DNA of 64,000 bases from a virus (Duplodnaviria; Caudoviricetes), in IMG/VR virus record IMGVR_UViG_2518285588_000002, positions 12,625 through 76,624 of that record, one strand, 5' to 3'. Below are positions 12,001 through 18,000 of this stretch, one piece after another. Position 1 is the stretch's first letter; each line of letters opens with the position of its first letter. The position numbers were made by a program.

Positions 12001-15000
12001 ACAGCCGGGCCAGCGTGCCGACCTGGTCGTGGATGGTCTTGAACTCCGACGCCAGACGCAGGACGAGGGATTCGATGCGAGTCTGCAAACTCATGGGGGA
12101 TGAACTCCGGGTATCAGGATGAGGAGCACCGGGGTGCTCAGGACGACAGCCAGCGGCTCTTGATCACGCGCCGGCCGGCTTGGCGGACCCCAGGACGGGG
12201 CCCAGAAACGGCGATGCCACCGCGAGGGGTGGCATCTGTGGGCGAACTCAATTCGATTGGGGACGGTGTGTCCGGCGGCGGCGCCAGACCCAGTTGCCGC
12301 TCCAACTCGCGCCAGTGACGCTCCTCGAAGCGGTCGAGCCCGGCGGCGCTCGCAGCCGCGCGCGCGTAGACGTAGCAGTCCAGTGCCTCATTGCGCTCGC
12401 GCATCTTCTGCCACGCGCGAATCGGGAAACCGCTCCGGTCACGGCGGGTGATCAGCTGCTCGGCGCACAGCTGCTGCAGGAACTCCGCATCGATCTTGGG
12501 CAGGTGCACAAACCCGGTCGGGAACGCGATGGTCGCGCCATCTTCTGCCACGTCGGCGGCTTTGCGCAGGTTGTTGTAGAACTCCAGCTTGGCGATGCCG
12601 ACCACCACCGTGAACACCTTGATGCCGCGGCGCAACTTCTTGCCGTTGCGGGTGACATCGACCGCCGTCGGCGTGCCGATCAGCGCGGCGCCACGTGCCG
12701 TGCCCTTGACGGCCATCACACGGGCATCGCCGCAGGCGCGTACAAAGGCATAGGCTTCCTGCGTGGCGAAGCCGGTATCGAGCGCCAGGCGCGCGAGCGG
12801 CATCGTTGCGCCGCTGGCGTGCGTCCACTGCTCTTCGACCAGTTCGGCGAGCCGCTTCCACACCGCGTCGCGGGCGGTGTCGCCCATCAGCACGCGGTGC
12901 TCCACCAGCCACGCTTCCCTGCCGCGCCCGAAGGCCCAGATCGACACCTCGATGCGGTCCTTCTGTACGTCGGCGCCGGCAGAGAGCAACAGGCCGCCTG
13001 CCGGTACGGTGCCGATGGCATAGTCCTCGCGGCGCTCCAGCAGCCGTTGCCAGTCCGGTGCCTCGCCCTCCTCGACCCAGGTCTCGCCCAGTTCGGTGTT
13101 GCGGAAGGTCTTGATCGCCGCCGCCGAGCCGGATTCCTTGCTCACCGCGCTCTCCCAGGCTGCGGCGATCTCGCGCCAGCTGCGCCAGCCCACCGGGCTG
13201 TAGAGCGAGGACAGGTGGAAGCCCGCCGTGCGCCCGCTCGTTTCCGCCATCGCCCGCCATTCGCCCTGCGACAGCATCCACGCTTTGTGGTGCTCATGGA
13301 TGGGCTCGTCGCAGGCTTCGCAGATGTACGCGGCCGTCTCAGGCTCACCTTTGGTCCAGCGCAGCTGCTCGAAGCGCAGCCATTGGCGGTGATCGCAGTG
13401 CGGGCATGGCACAAAGTAGCGGCGCTGGTCGGAGGCGTCGTATTCGCGTTCGATGGTGCTGGCACCGGCAATCGTCGGTGTCGACACGATGAAGATCTTG
13501 CGGCGCGCAAACGTCCGAGTCCGGGCTTCGGCGAGCGAGATCGCATCGCCTTCGCCCTCAACATCCAGCGGGTAGCCGTCGACCTCATCGAGAAACAGGT
13601 ACCGCACCGGCATCGAGCGCAAACCCACGGCGCTGTTGGCGCCGGTCATGACCAGCACGCCGCCCCGGAATTCCTTGGCCAGGATGGTGTTGCCCGAGTC
13701 GCGCGAACGGGCTGGCGCGATGCGCTCGGCCAGCACCGCAGACTCCTCGATCAGCGGGTCGATCCGCTGCTTGGAGTTGCGCTTGGCCATCTCCACGGTC
13801 GGCCAGACGGCCATCATGGGGCCCGGCGCGTGGTGGATCACGTAGCCGATCCAGCAACTACCGCACTCGGTGCCGCCGACCTGTGCCCCCTTCATGAAGA
13901 CCACCCTTTCAACGGGCGAGGTCGGCGACAGGCAGTCCATGATCGCGCGCAGGTACGGCGTGCGGTTGGTGCGCCAGCGCCCAGGCTCGGCCGACGCCTT
14001 GCTCGACAGCATGCGATGGCGGTCGGACCACTCGGAGACGGTGAGCAGCGGATCCGGCGTCAATCCTTCTCGCCAGGCACGCTCGAGCTCGGCGGCGCCT
14101 TCGTAATCCGCGTCCAGCATCAATCCACGCGCGGGCGCAGCTCGCCCAGTTCCTGCAGGTGTTCGCGCACGGTCGACTCCAGCGCAACGTGCATCGTGTG
14201 CGGATCGACGCCCAGGGTCGCGGCCATCTGCGCGGAGACACGCGCCGGCCAGTTCAGCCACGCATCGCGCTCGGCACGCGCGAGCTTGAAGACGTGCGCG
14301 ATGGCCTGCGAGCGGTCCACCAGCTCGCCCTTGAGGCGGGCCAGACGCACCTTGTTGGTCTGCGCCTTGACCACCTCGTTGACCGTGCGGGCCTGCAGCA
14401 GCGACGTGCCGCCTGTGGGCGACGATGCCGGGCCGTCCGGGGGCTGTCCCCCTTCCGGCGTTACGGCGGCCCTGACGGGCGGTGTGCGCGTGCCGGTGCG
14501 CGGCGCTTCGGTGTTGCGTGCCCATTCGCTGTCGGCGCGGTCCGTATCAATGGTGCCGTCCGCGTCCGGCGTGATGCGCCCTGCGGCGATTGCCTTGCGC
14601 ACGGCGGCGTCCGACACGCCTCGGTGCCGTGCATAGGCGCGAATTGAAATTCCCATCTGAATCTTGCTGGTCCTTTTGCAGATAGCGCGTGGCTTCTGTG
14701 CAGCACAGCGCGTTCATGTGTCCATCAACACGACACCTCAACCGGAGCACACGATGAGCAAAACCCAAGCCCGAAACAACGTGGTCGAAGAGTTGACCGA
14801 AATTAAGGAGCAGATGCTCGAACTAATCCAGAGTGCGCGCGGCTTGCTGAAAGCCGGCGGATTGCGCAGCGCGCTGGATCGTGCCGAGGACTACTGGCTT
14901 GCGCAGCTCACGATGGCGATCTCCGACGACCACGGCTACCTCGGCAGATCGGGATGCACCCTGCAGGACACCATCGAGGAAATCGAGAGCGACGAAAACG

Positions 15001-18000
15001 AAGAGAACGACTGACAGCTGGGGCGGGACCACCCGCCCTCTCCAACGAAAAGCGCTTGGCTTCTTCCCCGCACAGCGCGTTCATCACACCACGTTCAAAC
15101 CACCTCGAAGGACCAACAGATGACCACGCAACAACTGACCCCGGCACAGCACGCGATCCTCGCCTACGCCATCCAGCACACCGGCGGCAAGATCGAATGG
15201 TTCCCCGACAACATCAAGGGCGGCGCGCGCAAGAAGGTTGTCGACGGCCTCGCCAAGCGCGCCCTTATCGCGGCTGCGGGTACCGAATGGCTTGTCTCAG
15301 CCCAGGGCTACGGCGCGCTGGGCTTCGACGCACCGCAGCCGGACGAACCCGCCGCCGACGCAGAAGCACAGCGCAAGGACGCACGGAAGGCACCGCGCAA
15401 GCGCGAGAACAGCAAACAAGCCCAGGTGATCGCAATGCTGCGTCACCCCGAAGGCGCAACGATCAGCGAGATCTGCAAGGCGACCGGCTGGCAAGCCCAC
15501 ACCGTGCGCGGCGCGTTCGCCGGCACCTTCAAGAAGCGGCTCGGCCTGACCATCGTCTCCGAGAAGTCGGCCGACGGTGAACGCATCTATCGGATCGAAG
15601 CGAAGGATGGCGCTCAGGCCGACCAGTCGGCCTGATGTCGCGCGGGACCGACTGCGATGTCAGCGGTCCCGCATGACACCGCAAACAACGCTTGGCTTGT
15701 ACCCCGAACAGCGCGTTCATACAGGTGTCGCAACGACATCAACCAAGGACACCAACATGGACATCACCACCGCCAACTACAACGCCTTCGTCGTCGAGCT
15801 CACCGCCCTCACGCGCAAATACGGCGTCGCGCTCACCGCCATCGGCGGCGTCAGCATCGCGGATGAGCCCGGCGACTTCCGCAACGTCGTCTACGTCGCC
15901 GATATCACCAGTGGGGACCTGTACCCCAAAGACCCCGAAATCTGATCGACCTGCTGCATTGCGGTACCGCCCTCCGGGGCGGTTTCCGCGCTGGCGCGAA
16001 GTAGCGTCGCGTTCGCGATAGGCACCACGCTGCGAGTGCGTCCCCGCGCCACGCAGCATGCGGGGCACTGTGCCCGCACGCTGCGGAGTGTTTGCTCTCC
16101 AGCCTTGGCTTTCGGCTCGAACAGCGCGTTACTGGTGCCATCACAACGACGCCCAAGAAGGAGCACGCCATGACCACCACTGACCAGATTCCCACCACCC
16201 GCAACGAAGGCTGGGGCTTCTACGGCACGATGAAGGAGCGCGCCGCCGAAGCCTGGCCGCTAGCGATGACAACTGTCTCCAAGGCCACCGGCTCGTCATT
16301 TGAGGCCGTGCGCCTCTTTCTCGACAGCGCATTCGGACGACACTTTGCGGATGACGTCTGCAACGCCCTCCACGGTGGCCAGACACTTACCGATGCCATC
16401 GACTCCACGGCGGCTCTGTGGATGCAGCGCAAATCGAACGGTGGGCTCAGCCACATCTATGGCATCCCGCGTGACCTGCCCCACCTGACGGCCTTTGTGG
16501 CCGCCAGCGAAATCGCCGACGAACTTTCGGCGTAAGCCCCCTAACGCAATGCCGCCCGCGCTGCGGGTGGCGTGCGTCTACCGGATCAGCGCCTCGCGGA
16601 CAGCCTGCTCCCCGGTGTATTCCTCCCAACGCCTGACGATCACGTCGGCATACCTGGGATCCAGTTCGATCAGGCGCGCCGCGCGCGCCGCCTTCTCCGC
16701 CGCGATCAGCGTGGTGCCCGAACCGCCAAACGCGTCGAGTACCACGTCGCCCGGCCGGCTCGAATTGCGGATCGCCCGCTCCACCAGTTCCACCGGCTTC
16801 ATCGTCGGGTGCAGGTCGTTGCGGGCAGGTCTCTTGATCTGCCAGACATCTCCCTGGTCGCGGTCGCCGCACCAATGGCGCTGCGCCCCCTCGGCCCAGC
16901 CGTACAGGATCGGTTCGTATTGCCTCTGGTAATCCGCACGGCCAAGCGTGAAACGGTCCTTGGCCCAGATGATGAAGGTTGACCAGCGCCCGCCCGCCTC
17001 GCGGAATGCCGCCTGCAGCACGTCCAGTTCGCTGGAAGACATCGCCACGTAGATACCGCCGCGGCAGTTGGCGATCGTCGGCGTCAGCGCCGCCAGCAGG
17101 AAATCGTAGAAGCCCCCGCCCAGGTTGTCGTTCAGGATGGCCCGGCTCGTGCCGCGCTGCCGCTCCTTGGCCGTATTGGCGTAGTTCACGTTGTACGGGG
17201 GATCCATGAACACCATGTCCGCCGGCTCGCCCTGCAACAGCCTGTCGTAGTTCTCCGCGACGGTCGCATCCCCGCACAGCAGCCGATGCCTGCCCAACAC
17301 CCACACGTCGCCTGGGCGAGAGATCGGATCCTCGGGCACCTCCGGCAGTGCAAACTCCTCCGCCTGGCCGTCGCCCTCCTCCCCGTCCATCAGATCGGCC
17401 AGCGCGTCCGCATCGAAACCCGTCAACGACAGGTCGAAGTTCGCCGCGTCGAGCGCGGCCAGCTCGGCACGCAGTACGGCTTCATCCCAACCCGCGTTTT
17501 CGGCGATGCGGTTGTCCGCGATCACCAGCGCCCGCCGTTGCGTGGGGCTCAGGTGATCCAGCACCACCACCGGCACCACCTGCAGGCCCAGCTTCATGGC
17601 AGCGGCGAGGCGCCCGTGCCCCGCCACGATGATCCCGTCGCCGCCGGCCAGGATCGGATTGGTGAACCCGAACTCCACGATGCTGGCCGCGATCTGCGTG
17701 ATCTGTTCGTCTGAGTGCGTCCGAGCGTTGGCGGCGTAGGGGGCGAGCCTCTGGATCGGCCAGTGCTCGATCTTGCCTGCGAGCCAGGAGGCCGTCATTG
17801 CACCACCTCCTCGTCCGCCAAACGCTCTGCCGCAACAGCCGCGAAAGGCTGCCCGGTCGACTGCAGCGTCACCGGCACCTCGGGGTAGTTCTGCTGGAAG
17901 CGCTTGATCGCGACGTCCACGTACTCGGGCGCGATCTCGACGCTACGGCACTGACGCCCGGTCCGCTGGGCGGCCAGCATGGTGGTGCCGCTGCCGCCGA

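Follow-up and report, generated by a model that had tools for sequence, protein, structure and literature searches.

A promoter-like motif with an unusual -10 region, associated with DUF2924/serine recombinase elements and with exchangeable gene cassettes in Ralstonia prophages

The window analyzed here is a 64,000-nucleotide (nt) stretch of the Caudoviricetes record IMGVR_UViG_2518285588_000002 (positions 12,625 to 76,624), in which a motif made of a TTGGCT-like and a GTTCAT-like hexamer recurs ahead of small genes and of a DUF2924/large serine recombinase operon. The motif reads as a promoter from its geometry and start signal, and it is widespread and undescribed in the literature searched. 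In the source contig (76.6 kb), two to three decayed copies of a lambda-like prophage from the Ralstonia solanacearum complex form a mosaic; the prophage has the plan of a lambda-like temperate siphovirus, not of a T4-type lytic phage. One end of the family plan holds DUF2924 and the recombinase, followed by an Xis-like helix-turn-helix (HTH) protein, a Sak4-like protein, a primase, DUF6362, and two ParB-methylases; a short array comes next on the opposite strand, and then the terminase, head, tail, and lysis genes. With the first T of the motif numbered -35, the array and the motif copies are as follows.

14120 to 14656, minus strand: terminase small subunit gene (terS), left flank of the array
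14689 to 14717, plus strand: motif copy 1 (-35 to -7), predicted +1 A at 14724, back to back with the terS start (14656)
14754 to 15014, plus strand: cassette gene 1 (86 amino acids [aa]), no Pfam or PHROG match; replaced, duplicated, or missing in relatives
15021 to 15038, plus strand: short GC hairpin past the gene 1 stop, no U-tail
15056 to 15084, plus strand: motif copy 2, predicted +1 A at 15091
15120 to 15635, plus strand: DUF3489 gene (171 aa), modeled as two winged-helix domains with a flexible linker
15642 to 15672, plus strand: strong GC hairpin past the DUF3489 stop, traveling with the DUF3489 gene
15692 to 15720, plus strand: motif copy 3, predicted +1 G at 15727
15757 to 15945, plus strand: cassette gene 3 (62 aa), with a homologue in Acidithiobacillus phage AcaML1
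16052 to 16085, plus strand: modest GC hairpin
16105 to 16133, plus strand: motif copy 4 (GTTACT type), predicted +1 A at 16140
16170 to 16535, plus strand: cassette gene 4 (121 aa), phrog_8020, unknown function
16551 to 16571, plus strand: array-ending hairpin; in relatives a further motif and cassette directly follow
16578 to 17798, minus strand: ParB-N plus N6/N4 DNA methyltransferase gene, right flank of the array
23344 to 23372, plus strand: decayed motif beside a terS remnant of the second prophage copy; weak variant at 23428
24649 to 24677, plus strand: motif before the second DUF3489 gene (24712 to 25233)
25290 to 25318, plus strand: motif before a 96-aa gene (25362 to 25652) whose family usually lies after lysis genes
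58397 to 58425, plus strand: terS-linked motif fused directly to a fragment of an IetS-like S8 protease gene
60151 to 60179, plus strand: motif before the DUF2924/recombinase operon (GTACAT type)

All nine sites listed by the initial annotation were found at their coordinates; each lies on the plus strand and spaces its hexamers by 17 nt. Three of them, at 14689 (starting GTGGCT), 16105 (ending GTTACT), and 23344 (ending GTTCAG), deviate from the hexamer pattern given there. Within one mismatch the window holds eight sites against 0.22 expected, a count reached by none of 100 shuffles. A tenth copy lies beyond the window after the lysis genes (contig position 359, minus strand), and the variant at 23428 is a weak eleventh. 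Seven copies are followed, as claimed, by a ribosome-binding site (RBS) and ATG, at a measured distance of 29 to 43 nt; those at 23344 and 58397 precede broken material.

A motif matrix, which the initial annotation had proposed for Burkholderiales, was scanned against 83 related loci with shuffled sequences as a control. The scan returned 298 sites (145 distinct) of fixed spacing and orientation, with none in the shuffles, and the range extends beyond that order. The exact 30-bp pattern occurs in Betaproteobacteria, Gammaproteobacteria, Acidithiobacillus, and Nitrospira defluvii, and of 98 DUF2924 loci across Proteobacteria (36 to 69% GC), 82 have a looser form upstream (two reverse-strand matches), so the motif is not restricted to Ralstonia prophages as had been supposed. 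The looser form also occurs in alphaproteobacterial DUF3489 loci (34 matches on the coding strand, 0 on the opposite strand). Across ten whole genomes the matches fall in element-sized clusters, save one match with one mismatch, and the spans read were prophages or islands. Because matches to loose patterns in whole genomes lie almost only in elements (11 of 11 and 27 of 30), we recognize no host regulon (none found in the 15 or more genomes scanned) and regard DUF2924 with the recombinase as the motif's only constant company. Members of the prophage family include AcaML1 (four copies) and the circular 65-kb "plasmid pm01" of R. solanacearum CFBP2957 (NZ_CP115954.1; eight copies). Genes headed by the motif are array genes, the DUF2924 operon, post-lysis cargo (in N. 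defluvii, a DUF499/DUF1156 defence block), and sometimes the Xis-like gene; in the loci examined it never precedes terS or the late operon. The motif persists in phage-free elements as well, among them a defence island without phage genes, in which DUF3489 is absent within 18 kb, and compact 2.9-kb units (motif-DUF3489-DUF2924-recombinase; nine in one genome) with the motif 12 to 25 nt inside their apparent left end. Some of these multicopy units (L300-L311; G015, G075) adjoin tRNA-like fragments. The locus of one unpublished genome (G042) was excluded, and this genome enters tallies alone.

Promoter geometry is evident on both sides of the motif. At 56 non-redundant sites a start signal follows 7 nt past T-7 (pyrimidine at -1 in 96%, purine at +1 in 89%, pyrimidine at +2 in 95%), at positions that lay outside the search matrix; alphaproteobacterial sites show it less sharply (pyrimidine at -1 in 88%, purine at +1 in 71%). 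An A/C-rich leader and an RBS come next, the ATG stands mostly 33 to 38 nt after T-7, and in 49 of the 56 sites the unit closes on its 3' side with an RBS and start codon. The near-TTGACA -35, the 17-bp spacer, T-7, and the pyrimidine/purine start are sigma70 features. T-12 is never found; A-11 is confined to a minority of alphaproteobacterial array sites and is absent from all betaproteobacterial and DUF2924-linked sites, and a conserved block, (A/C)GC-R-T at -15 to -11, takes the place of T-12/A-11. Across 44 non-redundant DUF2924 sites T-35, G-14, C-13, and T-7 are invariant, -12 is a purine or rarely C and never T, and -11 is T or G. T-12/A-11 start promoter melting, and sigma70 promoters without A-11, held to be the one near-indispensable base, are nearly inactive. 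The late promoter of the same phages has an ordinary TAnnnT with a pause-like element after DUF6362, followed by cos-like features; since these phages keep an ordinary late promoter, the odd -10 would mark a class of its own. The proposal of an element-specific signal with promoter geometry is thus upheld by its near-confinement to elements and by the start-site and spacing signals. Boxes for sigma54, sigma32, and LexA, compared by eye with consensus sequences, did not fit in spacing or key bases.

The initial annotation had each cassette headed by a stem-loop. Four hairpins do exist, ending 17 to 19 nt before the -35, and five sites have none. Hairpin z scores are -4.7 at 15692 (the only strong one), -2.2 at 25290 (a paralogue of 15692), -2.0 at 16105, and -1.3 at 15056; the mean over 160 non-redundant sites is -0.43, with 13% below -2, and the hairpin is accordingly left out of the module. 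A single-stranded DNA hairpin promoter was rejected, an inverted -35 copy being present in only about 15% of sites. Array proteins matched no entry of known function in Pfam, PHROG, or PADLOC save DUF6900, DUF932, and phrog_8020, and no Rfam family matched at the motif. DUF932 genes are themselves motif-headed cassettes in some arrays (L094:249-1238, minus strand; L121:757). Divergent back-to-back motif pairs also occur, with -35 elements 36 to 39 bp apart (L004:7411-7450, L008:8689-8725, and six more), and their reverse motif heads a phrog_8020 paralogue that is often decayed.

Gene order and content between motifs vary among 34 close arrays, with replacements, duplications, and losses, so the invariant order that the initial annotation had named as a refuting outcome is not seen. 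Alignment ends are enriched 17-fold at the 5' edge of the motif and 5-fold at its 3' edge. The variable spacer follows the upstream flank (identity of 0.77 with a shared upstream flank versus 0.59 with a shared downstream one; background, 0.39), positions -6 to -2 follow the downstream gene (0.78 versus 0.37), as does the -9/-8 variant (1.00), and one upstream flank occurs joined to six different leaders. Since spacer and upstream flank stay together while -6 to -2 goes with the downstream gene, crossovers can be placed from the alignments within the 3' conserved block, at about -21 to -10, and the mobile unit would consist of a leader, its gene, any hairpin, and the next -35 with its spacer. 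This split is weaker in more distant arrays. As to excised circles, one back-joint in contigs rests on 36 letters, which are the motif itself. Gene exchange at the motif, suspected from the outset, is thereby supported by both alignment ends and flank linkage.

We consider it fairly probable that the motif is a private, helper-dependent promoter class of DUF2924/large serine recombinase elements and serves at the same time as an exchange joint. The near-normal -35 and T-7 would be bound by host RNA polymerase carrying the housekeeping sigma factor, and with (A/C)GC-R-T in place of T-12/A-11 the promoter would be nearly silent alone until an element-encoded protein reading the -15 to -11 block helped to open it. 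A single switch in the prophages would then activate the recombinase operon together with every small accessory gene and with transcription running antisense to the late operon. This gene set recalls lambda CII control, and the timing is read from that likeness: establishment after entry is preferred without being assured, induction is a somewhat weaker candidate, and steady lysogeny is improbable. As a by-product, the 12- to 15-bp identical block shared by the copies could let homologous or annealing-type recombination delete, duplicate, or swap cassettes, each exchange rebuilding a whole promoter; the Sak4-like annealing protein is a plausible catalyst. Genes and features bearing on the helper and on the exchange are given below.

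19611 to 19994: second copy of DUF6362
35230 to 35530, minus strand: separate canonical late promoter (-10 TACATT at 35505) and lambda-like cos features
35608 to 36015, minus strand: DUF6362 gene, sigma4-like HTH, whole-chain likeness to Q21/AlpA
40245 to 41117, minus strand: Sak4-like single-strand annealing protein gene, candidate for exchange at short homology
59991 to 60209, plus strand: conserved open reading frame (ORF) of 63 to 72 aa whose 3' end contains the motif and overlaps the DUF2924 start
60209 to 60658, plus strand: DUF2924 gene (149 aa) with a weak RAMA-like C-terminal part, the motif's constant partner
60655 to 62043, plus strand: large serine recombinase gene

DUF2924 is by elimination the likeliest helper, if a tentative one. 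Its weak RAMA-like part was found in 7 of 17 members, and comparison of DUF2924 with solved structures found no relative. DUF3489, which appears from modeling to carry two winged helices with a nearly invariant recognition helix and whose gene is nearly always under the motif, is a less promising candidate and is missing from one motif-bearing island; the rest of the probability goes to the recombinase, a helper element supplying the factor in trans, or a host factor. A bolder version, which we hold to be rather unlikely, has DUF2924 (or DUF3489) acting on the -10 side of sigma70 as a transcription factor whose reprogramming lets promoters fire without TA at -12/-11. Across Proteobacteria, in prophages, islands, and compact units, a single switch would then govern integration, the swappable array, and anti-late transcription. 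Alphaproteobacterial DUF3489 genes have a conserved GC-rich, hairpin-like leader element about 65 nt before the start (L220-L249), without an Rfam match in the four loci compared.

Other proteins were set aside. DUF6362 and the Xis-like HTH protein were considered as activators needed in cis, a role rejected here because phage-free elements keep the motif. The DUF6362 model has a sigma4-like C-terminal half and resembles Q21 (TM score, 0.47 to 0.50; Z score, 5.9 over 96 residues, below its sigma4 matches); being absent from AcaML1 and phage-free elements, DUF6362 is read as a putative Q-like late antiterminator. The 63- to 72-aa ORF was rejected as a universal factor, as compact units have none. 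This unannotated ORF has an amphipathic N-terminal helix, is coupled to DUF2924 in phage- and island-type modules, and has 48 relatives at 50% clustering. GGGTCCT at 35443 with repeated 9-mers is taken by us to correspond to lambda cos, with a second cos-like site at 18673. Such cos features (35230 to 35530 and 18560 to 18700, minus strand) lie upstream of the methylases and several kilobases from terS, an unusual place. The idea that the array is the leading end, entering the cell first, was rejected, since this position places it in the first-packaged end.

Several points weigh against the helper-dependent promoter. A-11 is present in about 17 to 30% of alphaproteobacterial array sites, copies immediately preceding DUF2924 show a weak start signal (purine at +1 in 57%), and the search matrix partly favours the invariant positions. 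Contigs from RNA runs, evenly covered, showed no transcription start and were uninformative on strand; covariation between motif and DUF2924 columns is present but confounded by ancestry. Phage WO has DUF2924 and the recombinase, and the motif was not found in the stretches of it that were read. Extreme betaproteobacterial conservation may partly reflect homogenisation among copies. For the exchange joint, insertion of cassettes beside a shared motif would also make alignment ends cluster there; only the linkage test separates crossover from insertion, and it uses 23 and 65 non-independent pairs.

The best-surviving rival, though an improbable one, makes the copies weak constitutive sigma70 promoters in which the conserved block is an operator, overlapping the -10, for an element repressor (DUF3489, DUF2924, or the recombinase). 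The almost invariant recognition helix of DUF3489 and the near-constant place of its gene under the motif would suit a repressor, as would the position of the motif just inside the left end of the 2.9-kb units and the A-11 of some alphaproteobacterial copies. Against this rival stand the established near-inactivity of promoters lacking A-11, the retention of T-7 while -12/-11 are not kept, the absence of a conserved dyad, and the island without DUF3489.

Promoters for an alternative, extracytoplasmic function (ECF)-type sigma factor, host or phage encoded, are distinctly less likely. The betaproteobacterial form does have sigmaE-like geometry (a 7-mer ending CTT, 16 bp, GTT), CGTT is the EcfG -10 core, and DUF6362 has a sigma4-like domain. 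The GT core at -12/-11 with a 16-bp spacer belongs to the betaproteobacterial form and is variable in the alphaproteobacterial one, where -11 and -10 vary widely and T-7 does not. The missing host regulon argues against this reading; complete elements showed no sigma gene, the likeness of DUF6362 to sigma is limited to region 4, and AcaML1 and phage-free elements do without DUF6362.

We give similarly little weight to the motif being primarily a site-specific recombination site, att-like and served by the serine recombinase, that makes an integron-like cassette array. Its constant linkage to the recombinase operon, the confinement of crossovers to one short block, and its place near the end of compact units fit such a site, yet there are no inverted-repeat half-sites or conserved dyad and no clear evidence of circles, the recombinase-linked copy is internal in prophages instead of at the att end, and an att site gives no reason to keep start-site and RBS spacing. 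A coding origin of the motif, as the 3' end of the small ORF ahead of DUF2924 with copies spread over the genome, is largely refuted: 17 of 17 DUF2924-linked copies tested are in frame in such an ORF, but synonymous variation is missing (93 to 100% one codon at six codons), array copies are neither frame-locked nor open, compact units lack the ORF, and third-position T-7 is fixed while the amino acid varies.

Further features of these elements were recorded in passing. The pm01 plasmid is the circular form of this prophage (loci L315/L316), with popP1 and a two-partner secretion hemagglutinin locus as cargo. An array remnant without phage structural genes, common to GMI1000-like strains, lies on the megaplasmid (L002:6289-10109), with a type III effector gene directly after the last motif. 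The prophage of the window contains a type VI secretion system (T6SS) auxiliary cluster (28173 to 34906, minus strand; VgrG, a Tle3 phospholipase effector, then a 489-aa gene and a PAAR-like gene), siphovirus-borne T6SS clusters being known (PMC11481896). A C4 antisense RNA (26234 to 26324, minus strand; Rfam RF01695, 54 bits) is present, and an H-NS-like gene (3508 to 3798, plus strand) is inserted opposite to the tail genes, in relatives too. Genes named from sequence likeness are the IS66-like ones that break the first prophage copy (20550 to 23055, minus strand) and a RelE/ParD-like toxin-antitoxin pair between DUF6362 and the cos-like site (18991 to 19556, minus strand).

Among known systems, AcaML1, pm01, and Wolbachia phage WO share the family plan. 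The lambda CII-dependent promoters PI, PaQ, and PRE have a poor -10 and a TTGC-N6-TTGC repeat and serve the integrase operon and antisense-to-late transcription. A poor -10 and one signal over integrase operon and anti-late transcription are common to both, whereas the motif has no TTGC-N6-TTGC repeat, has its conserved block at -15 to -11, does not precede repressor-like genes, and occurs in phage-free elements. Promoter early stem-loop (PeSL) cassettes of T4-type phages are repeated promoter-RBS units between small variable genes, with strong sigma70-like promoters, a terminator stem-loop as a defining part, lytic hosts, and demonstrated mini-circles (PMC2839356, PMC4122927). The likeness lies in promoter-RBS repeats between small variable genes, in exchange at repeats that leaves expression signals intact, and in indels and replacements bounded by repeats, all found here. 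The -10 without TA, the optional hairpin, the temperate phages and islands as hosts, and the same signal heading a recombinase operon set the motif apart: it is PeSL-like in effect and, without a strong sigma70 consensus and an integral stem-loop, not a PeSL. As that strong consensus is missing, "early genes" in the T4 sense, as first proposed, does not describe the cassettes.

Sigma-adapting or sigma-binding activators such as PafBC (PMC11804915), Caulobacter GafY (PMC11150451), DriD, and GcrA likewise let housekeeping polymerase use a promoter missing one core element. They mostly compensate the -35, while here -12/-11 is the missing part and no WYL domain is present; the DUF3489 winged helix resembles DriD at Z 8.6 and PafBC at Z 7.9, amid a crowd of ordinary winged helices. 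Q-type antiterminators (Q21, AlpA, GafZ) have binding elements between -35 and -10 (PMC11150451). DUF6362 looks like such a protein, but it has its own canonical late promoter just downstream, where the motif is not found. Our literature search, with most subscription journals outside its reach, found no paper on the motif or on DUF3489 with a promoter, and passing mentions only of DUF2924 and AcaML1; in the passages available from R. solanacearum complex prophage surveys the motif is unmentioned. New in this work are the connection with DUF2924-recombinase modules beyond phages, the start-site signal, the crossover position, and the invariant core, together with the exclusion of the hairpin from the module and of DUF6362 as a needed factor.

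A natural promoter class that is widespread yet lacks A-11 suggests an as yet unknown means of promoter opening and would provide an orthogonal, portable switch. The finding gives DUF2924 and DUF3489 a testable regulatory role and would extend promoter-guided cassette shuffling from T4 phages to temperate phages. In Ralstonia and other Proteobacteria, where these elements bear defence systems, T6SS clusters, and effectors, it also marks a likely control point of their recombinases.

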